Of a stretch of DNA of 64,000 nucleotides, positions 18,731 to 33,326 are shown piece by piece. Under the pieces are notes generated by a model. That model worked only from the letters and a program-made list of their open reading frames with translations, was not told the DNA's origin and did not search any database. The stretch lies in assembly GCA_010093815.1 (NCBI GenBank), contig ML996568.1; one strand, 5' to 3'. A program made the translations under genes and the position numbers. Positions within the stretch are counted from its first letter, which is position 1. Each line of letters opens with the position of its first letter. The DNA is from Pseudovirgaria hyperparasitica (taxonomy: Eukaryota).

Positions 18731-19472
18731 ATGGCCCACTACTACGCTCCTCGCTATCAAGTGAGTGCTATGCACTCCCCGTACGATGCTGGCTATGATA
18801 GCAGCAGTGACACTACCTCCAACGTAAGTAGTTCCATAGTTTTATGTGCTTGATTAAGCATCACTAACACCTGTCAGTCTGCCTGGGATTCCAATTTCTC
18901 TGAAGATGTGCTTCCGCCTTTCGAGTATGCACACAGCTCGCATAGCATGAGCCCGGTCTCTGCGGCATCAACGCATGCACCAAACACCCCATATATGACC
19001 GCAGTCCGCCCTTCCACATCTTGCACATCCAGATCTTCGGGTGTCAAACAAACCCCTCAACCCACATCCGCTATGGAGAACGAAGAAGAGCGCCGCAAGA
19101 ATAGGAAGCGGGAGCAGAACCGTGAGAGGTAAGCTATCCGACGCCCCACCTGCACCAAACAACATACTCACACACAGCCAAAGCCAACGCGCCTTTCGTC
19201 GCCGCCAGGAAAACCGCGTCAAGTTCCTCGAGACGAAGACTCTCGAGCTCGAGACTTCCAGCCGACAACTCCGTGCTGAGAATGACCAGCTACGTACCGA
19301 GCTTCATGGCGAGCGCACACGCAATCAGGAGCTTGTCTCTACTATGAACATGATGTCGCCCTCACCCCTCAACCTTACGCAAGACATAGTGCCTTCGATA
19401 GAGGCAGACCGGTATCCCCAGTACAGCCAAAACCATGATAGCCAAGGGCTAGACCGTCGCGTCGTGTGGTAA
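18731..19472 (+). CDS. bZIP transcription factor (Yap/AP-1-type basic region)
   Basis: Exons about 18731-18823, 18878-19128 and about 19178-19472. Spliced basic region RKREQNRE..QRAFRRRQE followed by a leucine zipper (LETKTLELETSSRQLRAENDQL). Confidence 0.8.
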
Positions 19473-22400
19473 AGAGACGTATAGCCTTTGGGAGGAGGAG
19501 TGAAAGTTTTGGCGGGCCCGGGCGCCCGCCTCGCGTGTGCGGGCAAGTGTCACCGGGACATCCGGATCTCAGCGCAGCCCCACCTACTGCTGCTAAGAGG
19601 ACGGCCCAGTATGCACGTTTTTTGGGCGTGATAGTGGGAGGAAAAGCGATATGTTCATTCTGGTCTTCGTTCGACACAACACAAGGAGGGTTAAGCGTGG
19701 CGTTTGGCGATCTTTGGGCCCCGCGGTCGAAGCTCCTTGTGGGACAGGCCACCAAGTGCCGGTGTCGCTATACAAATGCGACAGGGCTTCGGCAGCAGGG
19801 GCCACGGATCTAGACATTGGGATGGCCTCTGTATCATTCTGCTGGGATCAATTGGGTCTTGTTTGGGATGTGTTGTTAGGATCTCACGATATGAGTGGTC
19901 AACAAACAATGCAATAAATCCACTTTGTCCTGTTCGCCTATCTTCTTTGTTCGTCAAGTTTGACTATGCCGTCTAGACACGGGAGATCTGCACTGCGCTC
20001 GGCTTGTCTGCACTCCAGGTTTGGCATCCTATCTTCTGGACTGGTCTGTCTCGGACAACATGGGATGATCGAGTTCCAGTTACGGCTGCCTCCATTATCT
20101 CAGCTCGTACCCACACATAACCTGGAAGCTATCACGACCAGGAGGAGTATGTCAATACCGCTTTGTTCAGCTGTCCATCTGTACCAAGATGCGGTCTGCA
20201 ATCTAATCCCAGATACAAATCAGACAAAATGCAACAGTGACACCACAACGCAGTCATTGTCATCCAGGGGAGATCTGCAACGTTGGCTACCATCTTCAGC
20301 TCAGAACTGTCCCTACCCCAGCAGAACAGGGATTGCGTATACCCGGCGCTAAACTAAACGGATGGATCTATCCCTGATGGCCTTGCCCTCAATCCCTCAC
20401 ACGTGTATCCAATAGTCAGATGAACACACCAGGTTCTGGTTCTTGTTTCCGCTCTTTGTTTGCTTTTATCAAACCTACACTAGCCATCTCATCACAAACA
20501 CGTCTACCAAAGCTTCGTCGTGTTCGTAGATTGCCTGCCAGCGGAGCCACATCCAGGCTTGTCTGCCCCTCGTAGAACCTAATTCGAAACAGTCACTTTC
20601 TTTAGGTTGATGAACTGACATTCATGAAGCGTCGCTGCTACATCTCTTTCCTCATAGCATGCCAACAGATACGGCGTTCCTCTACACCCAATGAGGAACA
20701 CGGGATGCAGCCTGAGCTAGCGCCACAAGAGTACTCACGTTGATCCTCGGAGTGGATCTTGTGGGGTTGTTTGTATGCTGTTGTCCAGCTGGAGGTCAAA
20801 ATAGTAGTAACCCTTGTTCGAGTCGGTTACATAGTAGTGGCAGGTTTGCCCTTTAGAAGTTTGCACATACCAATTGCCAATCCGGCAGATGAACGCATCA
20901 TATTGTCATATAGCGTTGTCATAGCTCCATCCTAATGGCAGAGCCTCAGCCCAGATAAATGTACCCCATATCGTCATACTAAGACGCTGCTGTGCTTAGC
21001 GGATGTTACTCCACGATGTATCAGCTCCGAAGACAAGCTTCAGCGTCATTAGGAGAGACGTCACCAGCTGTTCTCAGCATTTTGGTATTGATCCTACGTA
21101 AACGCTGAAAAGGTCGGCGCATCCAGGGACACCATCTGCAGGAGAGATCCTGCACCCTGCTGGACTACAGCGGTTTAAGCGGGATGCAAGTGCAAGTACA
21201 AACCTCCGTATTTCAGATCTAGCCGTGGGAAGCGAAGTTCTCGCCTTTTCTTTCCAGGCAGACTACTGTATGTCGTCGTCTGCGTGGCAGCTATTCACGA
21301 GATGGCGCCAGGAGACCAATAGACAGCCGCCATACACTTCGTACCAAGTTCCGACAAATGAACTCGTGCACGTCCGCCCTTTGGCACAGGCCGCAGCTTA
21401 ACGCACCGTGGGGATTTTGGCGCTCTCGATGGCTTTGAACAGCGCTGTGGGAGAGGGGACGACTTGTGGCTTCAGCAGACGTTTCCAGTGGTGCAGCGTG
21501 GCTGTTATGGCTGGAGAGGAGAGAGAGAAAACACACCGCACGCAGCCAGGGATCGTCGGGGGCTCCGTCGACTCATTGGCTGGTTGGCGCAGTGACCTAA
21601 TCGGGCAACGTGTACCTGTACCAAGTCCATAACTAGTGACTAGTCTACATCCTTAAGCGAAGCGCCTCATGGGCTAGAATCTAGTGTTCGGGACGTTGGT
21701 TCGGCATGCCGATGCCGATCTTAGGCCCGTTGCGAAGGGGCCGAGGCCGGGTCGGGTGGCCCGCTAGACACGTCTCAGAAGGAACGCATTCACATTCGCA
21801 TCACAACACACATCAGGTATTGGTATCGATTTGTCTACATTGCCGCTAAACAGAACATCGTCTTCTTGTGGGCCCTAGGTACCTTGATGGCAATCCACTC
21901 GACGTGCATGGCTGAAATCGCAATGTCCTGGGAGTGGTATCAGTATCTATGATCTCGTACCCCTTGATGGCTTTTCTCACACCTGCAACACGCCACTCGA
22001 GACATCCATGCGTTGTTGGCAGAAATTTACGTGTCCGAAGACCATTTCTGGGATACGGAATTAATAGCATAATGTCGTCTTCAACTATGCTGCGGAACAG
22101 CGGCGCTGTAAACATTCATAATGACAGATCTGACTAGTCGTAATAATGTCGTTCAAAATCGCCATGCTAACTAGGTAAGCAGTTCAGCCAATACAATTGC
22201 ACTCAGCACATCTTCAAGGCTCTCACCTAACCACCACAGAGTCCCGGTGCTGAATAGGACAAGCCCATCAATCAAACATGCATGAAGCTCCTCGCACCTC
22301 AGCTCGATGTTACATCACACTCCCCAACACCAAAACGACGGGGCCTCACTCTTCCTCGCGTGAGCCACTACCACCGTGCCTGCATCCGATCCCATTATAG

Positions 22401-23409
22401 CAACACGGGACCCGCATCCCTGTCAACATACATACAATGACACCGCTCCTTCAAGACCATCCAGCCCTCGACCCTCCGCCCAAAACCCATCAATCTGCTA
22501 GACAGATCTCCCATCTACAGTGCATGGCACCCCACCCTCCCCAATGCGAACGCACACTCCCGCAGCGGTGTAGCCGTCCAGCCACAAATATGCCATCATT
22601 CCACTCTACCCACCCTCCTCAAGCCAAGTTCGCTGCACGTCTCGTCACCCACAGGGTCCTCAGCTAGACCTAGTATGGCCGTTTATTCCCGCCTGTCATA
22701 TCGCAGTATGCGTAATGAGACGGCCCGCTGAAGGTGCGGTTGGCTTTGGGGAGTCAGGGCTGTTGGGTGGGTGTAAGTTTGATGTTGTTGTGCGCCGAGT
22801 GGGAGGGCGTGGCGCTGTGGCTGTAGCTATTTGTATTGGCTTGGGCGGGTGGAGGATGGGATCGAACTCCGGGGGCATTTGTCTGCCACACAATACAACT
22901 GTACTCGAGCGTGAATGTTGGACTGGAGGAGGGCTGTTCCGGCTGAACTGTGAGTGGACTTTTAGTGCGTTGGGCGGACTCAAGGCGTGCACAACATGTG
23001 CTCCACGGGCACTCTAATGAAGGACGAAAGCGGTCTCTGCCTGAAATTACGGTTTCTTTCTGTACAACGTTGTGCTCGTACTGACTATGTGGCATAGATT
23101 GTACCTTCACCAATCTGTCGTCGAGCAGCAGTAGCTGTACCTGCTTTGTATCTCATCAATTAGCAGAGATCTCAAGCATGCTGACCAGAGAGTTCATATG
23201 TTTGAATTCATGGCTAGACATCATGTCGACTCAATATAATAACTATGTACGCAAGCCAGGGTGCGACACACCTCAAAATTGAGGACCGAAAGTCATGTAC
23301 GGTAGGAGAATCATCGACCGCATGACATCTCACGTATTTAAACCCATATCACCACGCCAGATACCCCGAACAGACACATCCAGTACGCCGATATGATTGA
23401 GCACCGGTC

Positions 23410-25109
23410 TCACCTCCTCAGTACAACCCCCTCAACCAAGCCCCTCTCCCTCGACAGCCTCTCCCCTTCATCACCCACCGTCTGCACCAGTGCTGGAAAT
23501 ATACAGACTTCCCCTGCCCCTAACTCCCATCTAAACTCCCACACGCCAGGCTGCCCGAACAGTAACCATCCGAATCGGGCCCCACGCTTAAGGATCTCCT
23601 CTAAATTCGACGTCCTGTCCGCGTCCGAGTATCTGCTGGACACGTACGGTGCGAGGACGACCTGGAGAGCGGCTAGGGCGGCGTGAATACTTGCAGCGGG
23701 GAGAGGAGGTGCAGACAGGGCTGATGAGAGAGAAAGTGTGCGGTTCTCGTCGTGGATGTGTTTAGACTTCAGCAGGTTGGCAGTGAGGGTACGCCAGAGG
23801 TTGAAAGTGGCGGTTTGAGCTGTGATTGCTTAGGATTGACCATACTGGAACGTGGATTTGGGAAAGAGCCAACGGGGTCGGACATACCTCGATCTCCACT
23901 GATGACTGCGCCACGGACTTGCGCCAGAATAGTTGATGCTTCAATGGGCAAGAAGGATGTCTGTGGGTCACATGAGAGTGACAGGCGTGAAACGATGGTC
24001 CATGAGACACATAGACAGAGAGCAGAAGCACGTGTATCTGGGCTAGCCAGCAAAGTTGAAAGCTCAGGAGTTGAGATATACATCTGCGGACCAAGCGTCG
24101 AGAGGTCCAGAAGAGTTGTGGCAGGTGTAGGAGTTGAGCAGTCGTAGTAGCTTCCGATATGGTCTCTTGAAGTACGTCAGTCTATATAATGAGTGTCACT
24201 GTAGCATCAACATGGAAAGGGAACCACGGCCTACCTGATCCTCTGGCATAGTGTGCCCAGTTCGCGCTCTATCTGCCGGTCTTCTGCTGCCTGTGGCATG
24301 TTACTGCTCACCATGGCCACCAGTCCCGTGGTTGGAGACTTCGGCTCGTCATATGGTTCTTCTCGGTCTTTCGTAATCATTTCAACTAGACCGATGCGGG
24401 ATTGTGTTCGTGTCTGGCGTTGATCCTGGCGACGGAAGAAGAACATGATGGCGGCTCCTATAAGAGCTCCAAGAAGGGCCGTGCCGATTGCGATGCCTGC
24501 GATAGCGCCCGAGGAGAGAACCCGTGAAACAGCAGGTCCAGGAGAAGCAGTAATTGGGCTGTTCGTCGTCGTCGGTACTGCTGACGATACGGATGGTGCA
24601 GCAGATGGGCCCGCTGCCGTGTTTGACGCTGTAGTCTGCGAAGGCGTGTTCAAGGCTGGTGAAGTAGTGGAGATGGCGTCAGCTCCAGAGACAGGTATCA
24701 GAGAAACGCCATTGACAAGTAGATTGTCTGTATGGAGGCCCATCCTCACTCCCTCCACATTAGTTTCTGCTCCCAATATGAAACTGCCCGTGGCAGAGCC
24801 ATGGGTGAACGTTGCCGCGGCCTCTCCGAGCGTGTATATGACATTGATATTGGAGTCACTGATTGACGTAGTCGTCGTGGTAGGATGCCAATCAGAGATC
24901 CTTAGGGTCTGGTCTACGAGCTCGACGAAGTATGTTTGGGAGCCAAGTTGGGGGCAGCTGCTAGAGCAAGCTGACTTGACGACGTTGAAACCTTGTTCAT
25001 TGGAGACCGTGAATCCGCCAGTAATCAGAGGGACCGATACCGTAACACCATTAGATGGAGCTGTGTTAGCGGCATCATTACCATAGACGATGAGAGTGCT
25101 GGCTCCCAT
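23410..25109 (-). CDS. Single-pass membrane protein: beta-rich ectodomain, S/T stalk, TM helix and conserved-looking cytoplasmic domain
   Basis: Three exons (introns about 24166-24234 and about 23820-23887) join in frame. TM segment GAIAGIAIGTALLGALIGAAIMFFFRR. The cytoplasmic part ends ..NLEEILKRGARFGWLLFGQPGVWEFRW..VCIFPALVQTVGDEGERL..VVLRR*. Confidence 0.75.
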
Positions 25110-26235
25110 ACTGCGCTGTATCCCTTTCGATCGCTCGAGCCCTCGTGTTGTTCAGTCCTCTTGACTGCGATCGTGCGCCGTAAGTAAAAATAGAGAGATG
25201 ATGAGAAAGACAACAATGGAGATGTCTCAGCCTCGCTTTTAGCAAACTTCGAGATCCTTTCGACTAATAGCTTCTTCAATTGGTCAAAAGCACAAGGCTA
25301 TGGCATTAGGCCTTCCAGTCCCACCTTTGATCACTGAGCCTTCACCCGCCTGGATAGCTGCATGCATATGTTCTTGCGTCCGGTGCAGTGCACTCATCCT
25401 GTCTTGAGACCATTGGTATGATCGCAAAGCTTTCCTGCGCGAACCCGTCGGCCTTACAGGCACTGAAACACCGTGCCGTTACCACTCATAAGACGGCCGT
25501 CTACCAGCGACATGAAACTCATGCCTTTGGACCTATTTTTGTGCACCTCTTTGCCGAATGGCATAGTTTGGGACCACGCAAGGCTGAAGCCTCGCAAGGC
25601 TCGCAGGTGTTCGGGTGGCGCAGAGTGCGCAGAGTGCCCAGGGCTACAGTGGCGCGAGCCAGTCAAAGCACGAATAGGGGCAGCCCCCAACACACCGTCC
25701 AGGCTTGCAAACCAAAACAGCGAGGGATCAACGACACGCAGCAAACTGGCGTCGAGCTGCACGCACAGCGATCAAGGAATGCATCATGCACAACTCCAAA
25801 CGACTTTGTGGAACACAGCGGCCTTGCTTAATAGGCTGGCCTCGAGCGCACTCTGTGATGTCGTGCATCCTGGTACTTTTCTCAAAAGTACCGCATTCCG
25901 GGCCAGCCTCGCGCGCTGTGCGATAAGATAGTAGAAGAACATTATTGCCGACAGGGAGGACTTGCGTTTGCTCTCCCAACGATATAATCTCAAGCCTTCG
26001 CTGTGCAGAAGTGCCAACGATCAACAGACGAGCCATCCAAAGGCGTCGCGTCGACATTCTGGACGACATCCATATCACGGGACCGAGCAGCGACAAGGCT
26101 ATCAACTGAGGGACCAGTCTCGTAGCCTTGCTAGAGAACGCCGCTGATAGCAAGGCGATAAAGAGCATACTAGTGGATTCGAAGTTTCTCTATCTTGCAT
26201 CTGCATGCGCCGCGGCCGATCACACAGAGGCAACC

Positions 26236-28920
26236 ATGGCGTCAATGATGCCTGACATAGTGGTGAGTGTAGACTTCGGCATGACCTGTAAGTGGTTTTG
26301 GTTTCACTCCCGTCAGAGAGGTCCGCTACACACGGCAAGCGAATAAGCTTACGGTAGGGCACTGTGGAGGAGTACACAAGGACCCGATATTTCATCCTAA
26401 AACTACCGCAACCTCCCGAATCTGTTTCTCGAAGCGATGTAGATCTTCAACCAACACTGACATCCTGTAGGCACGGGTGTCGCCTATCAGAACCTCTCCG
26501 TAGCCTCTGAGACAGTCCAATGGATTAATAAATGGCCGGGCCGTTCGCAAGCCGCCGAAAACAAGGTGCCGACTGCGCTCGTCTACCCACGCGAATTCTC
26601 TGGCGTACCCACATCATGGGGCTTCCAATCCGAAGAAGCGAGCGAGCAGCTCGATCACTCCAAAGTGTACCGCGAATGGTTCAAGGTCCTACTGGATCCG
26701 GCGCGACTGATCGAACAGCAAGCGAAGAATCCGCTCACCACGGCGAAAAGCGTCGATGAGATCAAGAAGTGGTACACCGACTACCTGTGCAAGCTGTACG
26801 GGACTATTGAGCGAAAACTTTCCGGACAGCTGAGTAGGCGGTGGGAGGATGCATGCGTGGAATACATCTTCAGCGTGCCGACGACGTGGAGTCCTCCGAT
26901 TGTCGAGAATTTTCGGGAAGTCATCGAAGCGGCTGGGTTCGGACAATGCGAGGACCATAGCGTGATAATCGATCTGACTGAAGCCGAAGCAGCAGCAGTG
27001 TTCTCCTCGCGAGAGACGCCAGGACTCTTCAAGACTGGGGATATTCTACTTGTTTGCGACGCTGGTGGGGGAACCACGGATCTATCGGTATTGCGCGTCA
27101 TGAACACAGATGGAGGGTCGCTCAGACTTGACCAGCTAGACATGGTGCACGGAGAAGCCATTGGGTCAACAGCGATCGACCGCTCATTTCAAGTGTTGGT
27201 AGAGAAACGACTTACCGAAGCCAACAAGCAGTATGCACTGGATATCGACATCCAAACGGCAGCGTGGGAGATGATGAAGAGCAAAGAATTCCAGAACGTG
27301 AAATGCGAAATGGGCTCCCCGGACGAGCCGCCGAGCTTCAAACTGCCGATCCGGGGGCTCCGGCCGGACTACAAAGACCTGATATCCGGAATCGAAGCCG
27401 GATTCATGACCTTCACGCTAGACGATCTCCAAAAGCTCTTCGACCGGCAAATCGACAAAGTCTGCCACTTGATCAATCGACAGCTCCAGACGATCCAGAA
27501 GAAGTATCCGCTCGAGCGCATCGCACACTTGGTTCTCTCCGGAGGCCTCGGGAATAGCGGATACGTCCACCAACGGCTTTCCCAACGGTACATGACACCG
27601 GACTGTCCGTGGCCGTGCGCCAAGGACATGCAGATCCGAACCAGCCCGGACCCCCAGCTTGCCGTTTGCAAGGGAATGATTGTGAATCGCGTGCAGAAGC
27701 TGCGCAGCAACAAGTCGCCGATTGGCATCCGCTGTTGCCGTGCATCGTACGGCTCGCTGTGCAAGGAGCTGTATAACCCGAACTACGCAGCTCATGCGAA
27801 CATACCCTCAGAGATAGACCCCCTGAATGGCAAGGAGTACGTCGTGAACGTAGTGGAATGGTACATTAAGAAGGTTTGGATGGTGCCCAGACATATTTAC
27901 ACAACTCAGTACTGACGTTGCCAGGGCGAACCGATCGACGCAGACGCGCCGATGATGAAGCAGTACAAGCGGCGCGTCCCAGCAGGAGACTCCAAACTCG
28001 AGATTGCCTCGTCCCTGGTGACATCCGACCTCGACGCACACAAGCTCCCATACAGACTCTCCCCAGGTAAGCACAACCAATGCTCTCACCTACTCTATCA
28101 CCATCTGACCAATCCCCTAAGACGTCCACCACATCTGCGACCTCTACGCCACCATCCCCGCGTCCGAAGGCATCCTCCACCGAAGCAGCCGCTTCAAGCC
28201 ATGGAAGAAGTCCCGCTCATACATGCGCATCGACTTTGAAATCAAGATCATCATCGGGCCTGCCGACCTGCGCTTCGAACTGTGTAAGCAGCACAACCTC
28301 CTGAATCCTCCCCCAGCTTCAGCAGCATTCTAATCATTGCATTCACAGGGCGTCAAGGCAGGAAAATGTCTGGCGAGCGCTCCATCAAAGTCGACTTTGC
28401 CCCGCTTGAAGACCCCACGCCCGTCTTCTCCCCTCACACCACTCAGCACGTCTCCCCTCTAACCGCACATCCCCCGAGCAAACACAACAGCAACAACAAT
28501 CACCAGAACAAAAACAACCACAACAACAACCACAACAGCAACAATCACCACCACAAAACCAACAGCCACAACAACAACCGCACCTCCCGCCAATCCACCA
28601 TCCCCCCCGAAGCAGACGGCCTCATCCCCGTTACCAACACCGACGAGCGCCGCAGGAGCCTCCTATACAACCCCAACCCCAACAACAGCCACCACAACCC
28701 CAAGCGCACCAGCACCAACACCATCACCAACATCAACACCACACCCACCCACACCCCATCCAGCGAACCCCACGCCCAACCCCCAAAGCCGCCCAGAGCC
28801 GTCTTCGGCGACAAGGAGATGCAAGGCGACAACGCACGCGGCTCGACGGCGAGTATACCGAGTATCATCGTCAGTCCGGTCGATGGGACGCTGATCGCGA
28901 CGGGGGATGTGTATCGGTGA
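26236..28920 (+). CDS. Atypical Hsp70-like ATPase (HSPA12-type fungal family) with low-complexity C-tail
   Basis: ATG 26236, intron 26288-26470 plus three further introns. Actin-fold motifs VDFGMTCTGV, KVPT, FSVPTTW, LTEAEAAA, VCDAGGGTTDLS, LVLSGGLGNS and AVCKG; no canonical substrate-binding domain or EEVD. The last exon runs to TGA at 28918-28920. Confidence 0.85.
28478..28580 (+). repeat. AAC/CAC trinucleotide-rich coding repeat (Asn/His tract)
   Basis: caacagcaacaacaatcaccagaacaaaaacaaccacaac... encodes KHNSNNNHQNKNNHNNNHNSNNHHHKTNSHNNN. Confidence 0.8.
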
Positions 28921-29898
28921 ATTTTGTTGTGGCTTGGGAGTGGGAGGCCCGTGGTGCGTGGGTGTTGGGATGGGATGGCATGGCGCCGCGTGATTTGATT
29001 TGTTTAGTTTGGTTTGGGTTGGTATGGGTTGGTTTACTACCAGTGCAAACAAGGACCACGGCCAGACTCTGGAAGGCTATATCGCCGAACATACAGAGCG
29101 TCTCTGAAAGAACACCAATACCGACACCAACATCACACCAAGCTCAAGCTCCGTCACGCGTATCGCACTCAAAGATACGATACGCTGCCATTCAGGTACA
29201 CCGTACCCCTCAGACGGCATATCTCTGCTAGATCGTCTGTGCGACATGTGTGGGGACATGTTATGATATGCATGATTATGCATGACTACGCTGGACGGAT
29301 ATGCGCAAGGTTGGTAGTGGTACATACCCATGCATACATGGATCGATGGGTGGATGCATGATTTGGATGGATGCATGAATGGTAGAGGGGTGGATATCTA
29401 TCATCAATCGCGGGCGTATACCCAGTGCCAAAATATGTCTGTGCATAGCATTTGACGCATTATTGATACGCATATGTATCTACGTGTACATATAAAAGTT
29501 CATTTATTCATATCAACTTGAACATTTTAACGTGCTTAAGTATCGTGGCTTGTTGATCTGATACTGATCCGCTCATAGTGAGTGCATACATAGGTAGTGT
29601 GGGTGTATCACTAGGTGCGGTTTCTACATACGGAATTTCTGATTGAAATGGGGTATATATATAGAGGTCTTAGGTAGTAGATGCATACATTATATATCCG
29701 CGCGCGAAGCGAGATGTTGTAGATGACGATGGATATGGGGAGGTGGAAGATGGCGAGGAGGGCTATACCGCAAGAGCGCTCCTCAATAACTCGCATCGCA
29801 TATCATGCATGTGCGGCACAGGATACATCCAATTCCACACACCACACCATCCCCTATACAAGCATCGAGCAAATCGCGCTCTTCATCCCTCAAGCGGT

Positions 29899-31628
29899 TT
29901 AGACCTTCTCAGCCTGCACCGCCTGCCCGTCAAAACTGCTCTCGCTCTGCATATTTTTCAAGCCCATCTGACTCGTGTCGTAGCCGTTCTGGCTCAGATA
30001 CTCCCTAAACTTGACATCTTCCTGCTCAATCGTGTCCTGGTCAATCGGCGGCAAGAACCACACCAAAACACCCGCAAGCACCGCCAGGCTGCTGCCCACA
30101 AAGAATGGATCCTGGCCCGCACGCGTATCGTTTGGTGCATTGTTGATCACGATCGGGATTACGTAGCTTCCGACAAAGGCGCCTACTTTGCCCATTGCGG
30201 CGGCAATCCCGTAGTAGCGGCCGCGAATCGCGGTGGCGGAGGTCTTGGACGCGACGAGGCCGATATTGTCGCCTGGCCCGGCTTCGCCAAAGGCGAGGAA
30301 GAGGCCGTATACGACAACGAATCCGCCAATGTTGGCTGGGTCTTTGAGCTTGCTGTAGGCTCCGGCCTGCTAATAGTCAGTATGAGCGTTGTTGGCTAGA
30401 AAAAAAGGCTTACCATAATGAAACCGACGATGGCCTGCAGAAACACACCGATAGCAAGCGTCTTCTTCGGGCCAAGCCACGGAATATCAGCAAGGAAAGC
30501 ACCGGCGATGCAACCTGGCATGTAGAAGAAGGTGATGAGGGTGTTCCAGCCGAAAGATTTCCAGAGCGCGGTGTTCTCACCAAGGAGGTTGTCGATGATG
30601 GTGGAGGAGTATATGCCGAAGGAGTAGGCGGAAAAGTCGTAGATGAACCAGATTGTGGATACAATCAGCAGTCGGAACCAGTAGTATTTGATAATGAGGA
30701 CCCAAGGGGTCTGGGCCTTGACCATAGACTCGCGCTGGAAGGCTTCTGGTTCTTGGAGTTTGATCCGCATGTAGAGGAGCGATAGAGGCGGGATTACACC
30801 CAAGCCCAGGCAAATGCGCCAAGCGACACGCAGATGCGACTCGGTCGTGATGAGCACCTGGGCACAACATGAGAAGCAGACTAGCAAGAAACGCACGGAG
30901 AGACACTTACAACAATCATGGGCACGATTGCCGCAACGAGAAAGCCGAAATCAATCTGCACATTGGTGAACATGATGAACCAACGATTTCTCGTTCCAGC
31001 CTTGAGCTCCCCTGTGCTCTCAGCACAACCGACACTGCCAGCTGGATATTCACCACCAATGCCAATACCAAGCAAGAAGCGAAACGCAGCGAGGGCAGCG
31101 AAGAGACCGGAGGTGCTGCCACCGGCACCATAGGAGCCAGCGCCAAGAGCAGCAAAGAGGATGATGATGAGGGTGGAGACGAAAAGCGACCATTTGCGCG
31201 AGATGGCATCAGACGACCAACCAAAGAACAGCTGCAAACTGTCAACAGACAATCAAAGCGCGATAGGATCGCAGGAGACATACCATGCCCATCACAGTTC
31301 CAGCGAAGGCGAGAGAGCCCACATTCCTCTGCGCCGGCGAGTTCTTGTAGGTGGTCGGGTAGATGTTCGAGAGCATGGTAGACACCGAGCCGATAACACC
31401 ATTCAGGTATCCGTCTGAGAACTATACACAATCAGATATGGTTCTCTGGTCGCCAGTGATGGCGAAAGTCCAATGTCGACTTACAAGTCCAGCGCCACAA
31501 GCAATGACGGGCCACATGCGCTCCCAACGACCCTTTTCCGTGTCGACCAAGCTCGCTCTACGTATGGCAGCATCGTCAGAGGACGAGCTCCGGTCGTTTG
31601 CGCCGGCGACGGGGACCTCTTTGCTCAT
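29899..31628 (-). CDS. GIT1: MFS glycerophosphoinositol/glycerophosphodiester permease (Git1-like)
   Basis: Five exons. ACGAGLFSDGYLN, FRFLLGIGIGGEYPAGSV, WFIYDFSAYSFGIYS, GEAGPGDNIGL and GKVGAFVG motifs. Confidence 0.8.
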
Positions 31629-33326
31629 GGTTTCGGATGCGAATACACAGGACGTGGGGAGAGGTCGCGCGTACTTAGAGCATCAACGGCGCCAGCGAGA
31701 GTGGCAGGTGGAGGAGGAGTAGGAGGCGAAGTAAATGAAGAAGACGACGAAGAGTGGAGGGTGACGAGCCAGGAGTGAAGAGAAAAAGATGTCACGACAA
31801 CAGGCGGGCCGACTGCATCTTTTAGAGCCGTCGGATCGCCGGTGTAATAGACGGATGGGTGATCCAGTGTGATGGAGTGATCCATGTGAGTGAGTGTTAG
31901 AGAGTGGGAGAGAGAGGGTCCACACCACCACCACCAGGGTCTACACTGCTACAGTACTACTGCAAGTAACCCAACACCTCCCGCTCTGCCCCACGCCGCC
32001 AAATGGTCAATTGGGCCCCATATCTCGAGAATATCTTCAACCAGCTAATCAAAAGTAAACTACTAATGCACCATCTGACCCAGCCGTGCATGTAAGTCTT
32101 GGGAGTCTGGCGCATCGAATACTACTACCGACTGTGCCACAGCCTTCACCTCCCGAGCGGTCTATGTACAGTATCAGCAGCAACCCACCGCGACAAGCTT
32201 TTTTCTCTTCGCGGCCAACAAGACAAGACGAGCGACAAATCGCGCATTTCGATCTAGTCACATAATAATTAGTAGAAGAAAAAAAAGAGGTCTGACAAGC
32301 GAGCGAAACGTCTGCGCAGGGCTCTGTTCGCGGCCAGCACTCTCAGTCTTGGCCCCCCGAATGCTTCGATGGCGCTGGAGGTGGATCAGGTGGCGCCGGC
32401 GGTCGCGTTTTGTACATGGGATAATGTATATAGTACGGTCGCTAACTAAAGCTTGGCCAACCGTCATCTCTGGTGAGCCCATGTGGGTGACAGGGACTTG
32501 ATCTGCGAACCACAATTGTGTAGTTCATGTACCATTCCTACCAAGAATAACAATGACATGTAGACCATCGCGTGTCAGAGGCTTGGGGCTGTTTCGTTGT
32601 CGTCGCAGACCTAGAAGTCTCTGCGGCTCATGTTCCGGCCAGTGATGCGGACAATGACTCGTGTGTGTTTATCTGCATCCTTGCCTTGCCGTATCTTCTC
32701 TCTGTGCTGGTAGTTGAGCTGTCAGGGTCGGCAATAGCCGCACAGTTGGTCCCTTTCGGATATTGATGAGTAGAGAGGAAGGTGACGAGTCAGTGTTGTT
32801 TGTGTTTCGTGCCAATCGAGTATTTTTCGAGAGCACGTGTGGTTTTTGGATAATATGAGAAGAAGATGGGGATGATGAAGAGAAATGGTGATAGAGAGAA
32901 GGAGAAGGAGAAGGATCTGCAATGGATGTTCTGTTGGGACAGTTCCAGTGGATGGCTTGTGGAGGATTCGGTTAGAGTACACAGAGATGTCTCTCCTGGC
33001 CGTCTGGAAGATGACTTGGATCTCTGGCTGCTTCTGCCAGACTCTCCTCCATGCTTGCTATGTTCTCATGCTGTAGCTTTGATCATTATACATAACCTCA
33101 CTCCTCTGTTCTAAGGAGGTGGATGGTCCATGTAGCCCACTAAATATATACAGACATTGCCTGTCTCATGTAAATGTCGAAAAACTGTGATAATGCATGT
33201 ATCGAAAGCGGATCTTTTGCGCTCTACCTCCTCGTTCTAACCGCAGCTGACTGACCGTTTCGAGTCGTGCATTCAATGGCCAGACTCTTGATGCGTCGCG
33301 GGCTATCCAGAATCTCTCACTCGCCC

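Follow-up and report, generated by a model that had tools for sequence, protein, structure and literature searches.

Gene pair and transcripts

The window analysed here is a stretch of 64,000 nucleotides from contig ML996568.1 of the fungus Pseudovirgaria hyperparasitica (assembly GCA_010093815.1). A head-to-head gene pair was confirmed at 23410-28920, where a preliminary description, made from the letters of the DNA, had placed it. The minus-strand gene codes for a single-pass membrane protein, the plus-strand gene for a protein related to the ATPase part of Hsp70 chaperones. The translated minus-strand gene was letter-for-letter identical to P0121, a hypothetical protein of 520 amino acids from P. 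hyperparasitica, and the plus-strand gene was identical to P0001, 776 amino acids, from the same fungus and the same 2.13-Mb contig. This pair, its relatives on metagenome contigs and the contact predicted between its products are the subject of this study. The two genes consist of the following parts:

24235..25109, minus strand: membrane-partner coding exon 1 (residues 1-291 and part of 292), comprising the variable N-terminal region, the Ser/Thr stalk, the transmembrane helix and the start of the conserved cytoplasmic domain; from the open reading frame (ORF), the identity to P0121 and the transcript joint 24165/24235
23888..24165, minus strand: membrane-partner coding exon 2; from the transcript joints 23819/23888 and 24165/24235 and from P0121
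23410..23819, minus strand: membrane-partner coding exon 3 with stop codon, comprising the C-terminal helices and the beta-sheet of the cytoplasmic domain
25110..26235, no strand: divergent spacer common to both genes, ATG to ATG, 1126 bp
26236..26287, plus strand: Hsp70-like ATPase coding exon 1 with the phosphate-1 motif DFGMTC; from P0001 and transcripts
26471..27873, plus strand: Hsp70-like ATPase coding exon 2 with the nucleotide-binding domain and the first part of the beta-domain
27925..28066, plus strand: Hsp70-like ATPase coding exon 3; from P0001 and transcripts
28122..28283, plus strand: Hsp70-like ATPase coding exon 4; from P0001 and transcripts
28349..28920, plus strand: Hsp70-like ATPase coding exon 5 with stop codon, disordered tail from about 28375

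Transcript evidence was provided by contigs of the runs X1 and X2, which stem from one sample and report presence and splicing only, no levels. All six introns were exactly absent from these contigs, with GT..AG borders; the contigs thus represent processed RNA, and both genes are transcribed and spliced as modelled. The contig of the minus-strand gene extends to 25631 in X1 (25419 in X2), that of the plus-strand gene begins at 25726 (25731 in X2). About 95 nt separate the 5' ends of the two transcripts, these being contig ends and not mapped starts, and both 5' leaders are longer than 500 nt. The leaders contain upstream ATGs, nine in the membrane gene (25110-25631, minus strand) and four in the ATPase gene (25726-26235, plus strand), of which the one at 26205 opens a frame that overruns the main start. 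Upstream ATGs in such long leaders suggest translational control.

The Hsp70-like ATPase

By its predicted structure P0001 is an Hsp70-fold ATPase. Foldseek with the model m49eefdc70e3d aligned it to BiP and DnaK at E-values of 5e-18 to 1e-16 (probability 1.00) over 580-650 columns, which include the place of the substrate-binding beta-domain, and recovered the two-lobed Hsp70 nucleotide-binding domain; the ribosome-associated complex (RAC) structures 5mb9 and 6sr6 were also among the fold matches. Sequence comparisons gave marginal scores. The product of exon 2 reached 20.6 bits against the Pfam family HSP70 (PF00012), exactly the gathering cut-off of 20.6, the whole protein stayed below it with 19.4 bits, and the single sequence had no match at E ≤0.01 among the PDB sequences. 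A profile of 33 ATPase relatives matched mortalin and DnaK in the PDB at E 0.006-0.09 (best E 0.0064). The motifs DFGMTCTG, DAGGGTTD and SGGLGNS, which we take to be the phosphate-1, phosphate-2 and adenosine motifs, vary little or not at all among the 33 relatives, with D214, G216-G218, T219, T220, D221 and G375-G378 invariant throughout.

The model is folded over residues 1-595, with a mean predicted local distance difference test (pLDDT) of 69.7 for the whole chain. The fold ends at about residue 595 in beta-strands; the helical lid and the EEVD terminus are absent from P0001, which ends in ...GDVYR. A beta-rich domain, residues 435-590 approximately, is aligned at the position of the Hsp70 substrate-binding beta-domain, so P0001 lacks the lid but not the entire C-terminal domain. 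Residues 596-776 form a disordered tail rich in His, Asn and Thr, which is lineage-specific, as the tails of the relatives are shorter or different. Its DNA contains imperfect repeats of 9-15 nt of CAA/CAC type at 28479-28742, coding for His, Asn, Gln and Thr.

The close relatives show 48-56% identity and come from Dothideomycetes, Leotiomycetes and lichen-forming Lecanoromycetes, where one genome often has two of them; among the best 120 matches were two each from Patellaria atrata, Lophium mytilinum and Zopfia rhizophila. The wider family extends to Basidiomycota, Mucoromycota and plants. Many relatives carry the precomputed label PF27033 (DUF8340), while P0001 itself shows '-'; the first structural match for P0001 in the Atlas names DUF8340 over the aligned part. 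A language-model feature search placed a chordate HSPA12A.1 cluster near P0001 (score 0.96, 194 shared features, rank 25 of 30), which is a lead only. P0001 probably belongs with the HSPA12-like lidless Hsp70s.

The membrane partner

From N- to C-terminus, P0121 comprises a variable part, a stalk rich in Ser and Thr, a single hydrophobic helix and a folded domain of residues 265-520 approximately. The helix is encoded here:

24429..24503, minus strand: single transmembrane helix, about residues 203-227, followed by the basic stretch RRQDQRQTR; helix at 200-230 in the model, with weak matches to transmembrane and juxtamembrane segments

The positive-inside rule is an established basis for membrane orientation, and by this rule the basic stretch behind the helix would place the C-terminal domain in the cytoplasm. 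No signal peptide was seen by eye in P0121 or in nine relatives. An exhaustive search with P0121 retrieved 844 relatives at E ≤0.001 and 316 at E ≤1e-10; a word-index search returned no match besides P0121 itself. The alignments run from about residue 130-150 through the C-terminus, hence the N-terminal 130 residues of P0121 are not conserved. The family shares a stalk rich in Ser, Thr and Pro and a conserved domain of about 250 residues with the motifs LPQPLEDKAISGE...IKNHVQSYYH and NLEEILKRAA.FAF.LFSQPS.W.F.W. The structural model has a pLDDT above 90 for most of 270-520, a helical bundle with a small beta-sheet at the end, and 28-46 for the N-terminal part. Exon 3 matched the A2-HMM (hidden Markov model, HMM) with 149 bits and was likewise modelled at a pLDDT above 90.

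The conserved domain had no Pfam family in P0121, in 56 relatives and in six cytoplasmic-domain pieces at E-values up to 10, and the Pfam models of the J-domain, BAG, GrpE and HspBP1/Sil1 did not match any of these sequences. The best Foldseek hit of the cytoplasmic domain had an E of 0.2. In the VIA structural search against representatives the best Z was 5.0, for Cascade subunits over 114-119 residues with a root-mean-square deviation of 4.0-4.5; this Z lies in the range for unrelated helical proteins. Neither search gave a clear fold match. A PDB profile search with the membrane family matched only stalk and transmembrane segments of type-I membrane proteins. The Atlas neighbours of the partner were unnamed ascomycete clusters. 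A cluster of mollusc MIEAP (PF16026) aligned to residues 269-520 with a template modelling score of 0.47 over 180 residues, under the bar for naming and with no Pfam match, and the partner at L017 (2375-3199, minus strand) scored against Pfam DUF3731, 'DNA-K related protein', at E 0.16 and 12 bits, below any threshold. Since the domain is without a Pfam family and without a clear solved relative, it is a candidate new fold family. The Pfam search found no WSC domain in P0121, and neither there nor in P0001 a domain linked to death or defence (HET, NLR, pore-forming or other).

A divergent form of the partner was observed at L055:800-3236 (minus strand) and L058:3-623 (minus strand), next to an ATPase sublineage 29% identical to that of the window. 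This partner keeps the cytoplasmic domain and has a long C-terminal extension, and the frames read by eye contain no hydrophobic segment. Membrane anchoring may be dispensable for the partnership in this sublineage.

The preliminary description had announced a divergent pair around a 1.1-kb intergenic region (25110-26235) in a gene-poor stretch. The former agrees with the spacer of 1126 bp; the latter is roughly right, with no ORF of at least 150 amino acids found in 19472-24231. Its atypical Hsp70 has the intact nucleotide motifs and lacks EEVD as described, whereas the supposed loss of the substrate-binding domain has to be corrected, a beta-domain sitting at that position. Of the proposed order ectodomain, stalk, transmembrane helix and cytoplasmic domain, the last three parts were recovered, while the ectodomain is unconserved and modelled at low confidence.

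Conserved adjacency in metagenome loci

Metagenome contigs were scanned with an alignment of ATPase relatives, giving at least 59 confirmed loci from at least 590 pattern matches. The membrane-family HMM was then run against all six reading frames of the loci and the window, which together comprise 518,699 bases. Thirty-four loci were assessable, with no less than 1 kb of sequence upstream of the ATPase gene; the other 25 had too little. Among the matches listed, a member of the membrane family lay upstream of the ATPase gene in 31 of the 34; 29 of these matches cover the cytoplasmic domain, the remaining two (L023 and L029) are cut by a contig end. The partner is on the opposite strand in 29 of the 31 loci and on the same strand in L020 and L021. 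After collapse at 95% ATPase identity, 26 of 29 groups had a partner (24 with cytoplasmic domain, 2 partial, 3 none). No cytoplasmic-domain match occurred away from an ATPase gene in the 518,699 bases; other downstream or distant matches (L019, L051, L008) concerned the low-complexity stalk and transmembrane part only, at 34-36 bits. The pairing is not due to chance. BLAST clustering of the neighbours found the next family in 9 loci only, antisense shadow frames aside. As the flanking genes differ among loci, the pair is kept and not a larger block. The spacers from ATG to ATG were estimated at 402-1568 bp in 19 loci, compared to 1126 bp here.

We considered that L032 and L037, which have no partner match, might have lost the WPG...KVPT loop of the ATPase. 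This was rejected, the loop being present in both, and the motif consequently does not track the presence of the partner. A small frame at L037:6341-6838 (minus strand), 3 kb upstream, starts with MGCGNSK, which resembles a myristoylation signal, and has a stretch faintly like the juxtamembrane motif of the partner; it was not detected by the HMM. An extra small ORF for a single-pass membrane protein was seen between the ATPase and the membrane-family genes at L036:4980-5651 and L048:5731-6645 (minus strand). It consists of stalk, transmembrane helix and short tail. The two loci are near-identical, the L048 spacer being about 3 kb longer than that of L036.

Co-divergence of the two families

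Twenty-one loci, the window among them, were aligned over no fewer than 290 columns of the ATPase and 180 of the cytoplasmic domain, and 18 pairs were left after removal of loci at least 97% identical. ATPase identity between paired loci ranged from 27% to 95%. The protein distances of the two families were correlated over 153 comparisons (Pearson 0.94, Spearman 0.79), a correlation reached by none of 2000 Mantel label permutations. The maximum-likelihood trees of both proteins contained the identical groups {L001, L002}, {L014, L026} and {L035, L047}, and both also recovered {L036, L044, L051} and L042 with {L016, L022, L024, L028}. The groups {L035, L047}, {L036, L044, L051} and that of L042 were joined into one clade with a support of 0.99 and 0.87, and both trees yielded the same three clades. 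Congruent trees are the prediction of long co-inheritance; since the contigs are anonymous, the congruence does not separate co-duplication from shared species history.

Predicted complex and interface

The complex was predicted for ATPase residues 1-600 and partner residues 250-520. The interaction prediction score from aligned errors (ipSAE) was 0.67, 0.69 and 0.67, compared to 0.00, 0.00 and 0.01 for three controls, with a contact agreement of at least 68% and a partner pLDDT of at least 75 in the runs. The pass mark had been calibrated on solved complexes, of which 51 of 78 passed, and on mismatched pairs, of which 2 of 108 passed; among eukaryotic pairs, 39 of 65 solved ones and 2 of 126 unrelated ones passed. 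The predicted interface comprises residues 25-48, 289-308 and 413 of the ATPase and residues 265-297, 448-463, 500-501 and 510 of the partner. Its main segments are encoded as follows:

26491..26562, plus strand: ATPase residues 25-48, family-specific loop, predicted partner contact
27283..27342, plus strand: ATPase residues 289-308 (KEFQNVKCE...F307), predicted partner contact
24150..24317, minus strand: partner residues 265-297 with the motif LPQPLEDKAISGE...IKNHVQSYYH, spanning the first intron, predicted ATPase contact

The loop 25-48 is poorly ordered and of low confidence in the monomer model; W35, A45, E47 and N48 are invariant and W39-P40-G41 nearly so. Residues 289-308 align with the mortalin segment AEKAKCELSS..., an Hsp70 helix-loop which we take to be part of subdomain IIB. 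In the partner, P274, D277, I291 and H294 are near-invariant. The predicted interface was more conserved than the rest of the protein on both sides, with 0.82 vs 0.71 in the ATPase (reached by 148 of 20000 permutations) and 0.54 vs 0.44 in the partner (516 of 20000). The interface motifs of both proteins change together between the three clades, which is expected for any region because the trees agree.

The divergent spacer

STRE (stress response element), CCAAT and TATA motifs were not enriched in 20 spacers. The motif CRAGGCT (AGCCTYG on the other strand) occurred 2.25 times per kb in the 20 spacers and 0.39 times per kb elsewhere in the loci, a 5.8-fold difference (34 sites in 15,092 spacer bases vs 119 in 305,898), and 16 of the 20 spacers carry it. 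It was found post hoc in the same data, and spacer and coding sequence differ in composition; it is therefore a lead only. The sites in the window are:

25225-26131, no strand: eight CRAGGCT/AGCCTYG sites in the spacer
25578..25606, no strand: cluster of three CRAGGCT/AGCCTYG sites

A longer form of the motif, AGCCTCGG, is found at some sites and includes CCTCGG, presumably a site of fungal zinc-cluster factors.

A third gene linked to the pair in other loci

Sixteen loci have 1.5 kb or more of flank on the far side of the membrane gene, and in 13 of them an iterated search detected a gene of a third family there; it was missing in L008, L014 and L055 despite sufficient flank. About 170 residues at the N-terminus of the product form a conserved helical domain, in many cases with a long disordered tail behind it, and neither Pfam nor the PDB gave a match. 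The genes lie at:

L001:1212-2057, L002:6242-7111, L017:1130-1768, L026:5722-6765: third-family gene
L035:6699-7796, L036:410-2137, L047:6968-7900, L048:950-2677: third-family gene
L051:5260-7000, L022:5729-7711, L024/L025:5450-7333, L028:5163-7466: third-family gene

The third family is absent from the entire 64-kb window (best E 1.9), which makes the locus of P. hyperparasitica the two-gene form of an often three-gene cluster. The frequent linkage suggests a larger machine in other fungi. The protein P0261, 1000 amino acids, contains a membrane-family member in residues 67-436 and a third-family domain in 469-615. This may be a natural fusion, or two neighbours on the same strand were merged in the gene model; in both cases the protein links the two families. 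A fusion of P0261 with the ATPase was rejected.

Surroundings of the pair

Genes for Rif1, Ric8, a protein kinase and a bZIP protein flank the pair on one side; two transporter genes and genes for RPN7 and an mRNA cap methyltransferase lie on the other. The transcript contig of the membrane gene continues beyond the stop codon and contains a 148-nt joint, 22949/23098, with GT..AG on the plus strand (22800-23400). This joint indicates a convergent, spliced plus-strand transcript that overlaps or abuts the 3' end of the membrane gene. No convincing protein frame was seen for it in 22800-23400, and the transcript may be non-coding or an orphan. A search of 19500-32000 of the window for inverted or long direct repeats around the pair found none, Rfam families were absent from 19000-30000, and a mobile-element reading was dropped on these grounds.

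Interpretation and alternatives

With moderate confidence we take the locus to be a conserved divergent module of ascomycetes, consisting of a lidless ATPase of the HSPA12-like/DUF8340 kind and a single-pass membrane protein as its dedicated docking partner. The two genes would be expressed from a compact bidirectional promoter in common. The cytoplasmic domain is predicted to bind the nucleotide-binding domain via the juxtamembrane helix 265-297 and the later helix 448-463, which would clamp two sites, in lobe I the family-specific loop 25-48 and in lobe II the subdomain IIB tip at 289-308. Such docking would tether the ATPase to a membrane. In Hsp70 proteins lobe I and the tip of IIB move apart as the nucleotide leaves. 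As the predicted contact spans both lobes, between which the nucleotide is enclosed and released, the partner probably sets the nucleotide cycle of the ATPase, acting like an exchange factor or a lock.

Several observations weigh against this interpretation. The synteny rests wholly on anonymous metagenome contigs that were sought from the ATPase side, and three assessable loci have no partner match, L032 and L037 with 10 kb of flank each and L058 with 1.1 kb, the last with an upstream frame that resembles the beginning of the L055 partner. Shared species history alone can produce congruent trees. The complex score is a model confidence for which the family alignments made here were not used, and the complex test was passed as well by 7 of 44 pairs of neighbouring genes drawn blindly; for these reasons the score is counted as support and not as proof. 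The conservation of the interface exceeds the background only modestly. The assignment of residues 25-48 to lobe I and the exchange-factor-like geometry depend on an approximate sequence register and on the general anatomy of Hsp70, and among the matches listed the partner domain bore no likeness to BAG, GrpE, armadillo-type exchange factors or the J-domain. Heat-shock elements occurred in none of the 20 spacers, so this is probably not a classical heat-shock gene.

The seven passing neighbour pairs also speak for mere co-regulation, in which a bidirectional promoter serves two genes of one process and the predicted complex is a false positive; the short spacers and the enriched motif CRAGGCT, found post hoc, would suit such a common control. 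We regard this as rather improbable, as the score of 0.67 exceeds the 0.34-0.59 of the four mismatches that passed the calibration, the interface coincides with those conserved segments of either protein that are most specific to its family, and the adjacency persists in L020 and L021, whose same-strand order leaves no bidirectional promoter. Even less can be said for an inherited synteny without function, by which the genes are ancestral neighbours by accident or are carried along jointly by a segment that duplicates or moves. Any two linked genes would give congruent trees, yet the pair was retained across ATPase lineages of 27-35% identity whereas the flanking genes were not, and the window showed no repeats around it that would mark such a segment. 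Gene order is poorly kept in Dothideomycetes, which are known for mesosynteny, and a pair kept without function in these fungi is very unlikely.

Linkage, co-divergence and predicted complex also fit a private chaperone and its client, with the membrane protein as the working part and the ATPase folding, inserting, trafficking or disassembling it or oligomers of its cytoplasmic domain. The ATPase does keep a beta-domain at the substrate-binding position of Hsp70. The predicted contact, however, lies on the nucleotide-binding domain (25-48 and 289-308 in IIB) and not on the client-binding beta-domain, and the confidently folded partner domain (pLDDT above 90) differs from the extended segment of a typical client, so that we consider this relationship unlikely. 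The preliminary description had favoured a receptor-Hsp70 switch, an ectodomain sensing an extracellular cue and activating the ATPase in sensing, allorecognition or defence. A single-pass protein with variable outer part, stalk and conserved inner domain has the general shape of a receptor, several ATPase paralogues occur per named genome, and recognition proteins typically have N-terminal regions that evolve fast. The N-terminal part of P0121, though, is without a conserved fold (pLDDT 28-46) and unaligned among relatives; a signal peptide was not seen by eye, the L055/L058 sublineage appears by eye to do without a membrane segment, and neither protein contains a HET, NLR, pore-forming, death or defence domain detectable in the searches. 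A switch of this kind has about the same low likelihood as the chaperone and its client; the extracellular cue found no backing, and nothing bears on allorecognition or defence. Other expectations of that description fared well. Its dedicated two-gene module is well supported in silico by the linkage in 31 of 34 loci, the co-divergence and the predicted complex, the order was mostly head-to-head (29 of 34 assessable metagenome loci), the trees agreed in their three clades at a distance correlation of 0.94, and the cytoplasmic domain was predicted to dock on the ATPase with an ipSAE of 0.67 against 0.01 for the best control. Its remark on nucleotide-exchange partners would fit the predicted contact with subdomain IIB.

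Significance and comparison with known systems

The search for literature on the pair, on DUF8340/PF27033 and on fungal HSPA12 yielded no publication that treats the pair, with subscription journals and bioRxiv supplements lying outside its reach. HSPA12-like Hsp70s are widespread in fungi and animals, and the pair offers a first testable partner for this poorly understood Hsp70 branch. Conserved non-metabolic gene pairs or triplets are uncommon in filamentous fungi, hence the pair marks a unit worth annotating. If the faint likeness of the partner domain to MIEAP is real, the partnership would predate the split of fungi and animals and would point to the function of animal HSPA12. Molluscs are the animals with the largest HSPA12 expansions, and those of bivalves are massive. 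A generalisation is conceivable, although we give it little credit: HSPA12-like lidless Hsp70s would be halves of obligate ATPase-adaptor machines, in which a membrane adaptor of new fold, holding on to lobe I and subdomain IIB, gates the nucleotide cycle in ascomycetes and a third helical protein takes part in most lineages.

HSPA12A and HSPA12B of animals share with P0001 the Hsp70-fold nucleotide-binding domain with intact phosphate and adenosine motifs and the absence of lid and EEVD. P0001 differs in its fungal lineage, in relatives annotated as DUF8340 (PF27033), in the marginal sequence likeness to canonical Hsp70 and in the conserved linked membrane partner, none having been found reported for HSPA12 in the literature searched. 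A 2026 review (PMC13580251) states the function of HspA12 as unknown, and a 2008 survey (PMC2266713), in its accessible part, does not treat fungal HSPA12.

The cell-wall sensors Wsc1 and Mid2 resemble P0121 in the Ser/Thr-rich stalk, the single transmembrane helix and the cytoplasmic signalling part. P0121 has no WSC domain, no signal peptide by eye and a large folded cytoplasmic domain, unlike the short cytoplasmic tail of Wsc1 and Mid2 that binds a guanine nucleotide exchange factor. Among Hsp70 systems, the exchange factors GrpE, BAG, HspBP1/Sil1 and Hsp110 bind the upper lobes IB and IIB and control the release of the nucleotide. The predicted contact at residues 289-308, which align to the IIB helix-loop, may be comparable, while the partner has no sequence or fold likeness to these factors among the matches listed. 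In the bacterial pairs MreB-RodZ, PilM-PilN and FtsA-FtsN, a single-pass protein from a gene close by keeps an ATPase of the actin/Hsp70 superfamily at the membrane through its cytoplasmic part; lineages and partner folds are unrelated, and the parallel is an analogy only. The Ssz1-Zuo1 pair of the RAC is an atypical Hsp70 with a dedicated stable partner, and resembles the present locus in having a diverged Hsp70 as half of a fixed pair. Membrane-anchored J-proteins of the Sec63 type, bitopic or polytopic, recruit Hsp70 to the membrane by a cytosolic domain. The partner described here differs from both in having neither a J-domain nor a Pfam family, and in a predicted contact that would lie at lobe I and IIB rather than at the J-domain site. 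We regard the pair as an undescribed dedicated ATPase-adaptor module that follows an already known principle, the combination of an Hsp70-type ATPase with a dedicated partner.

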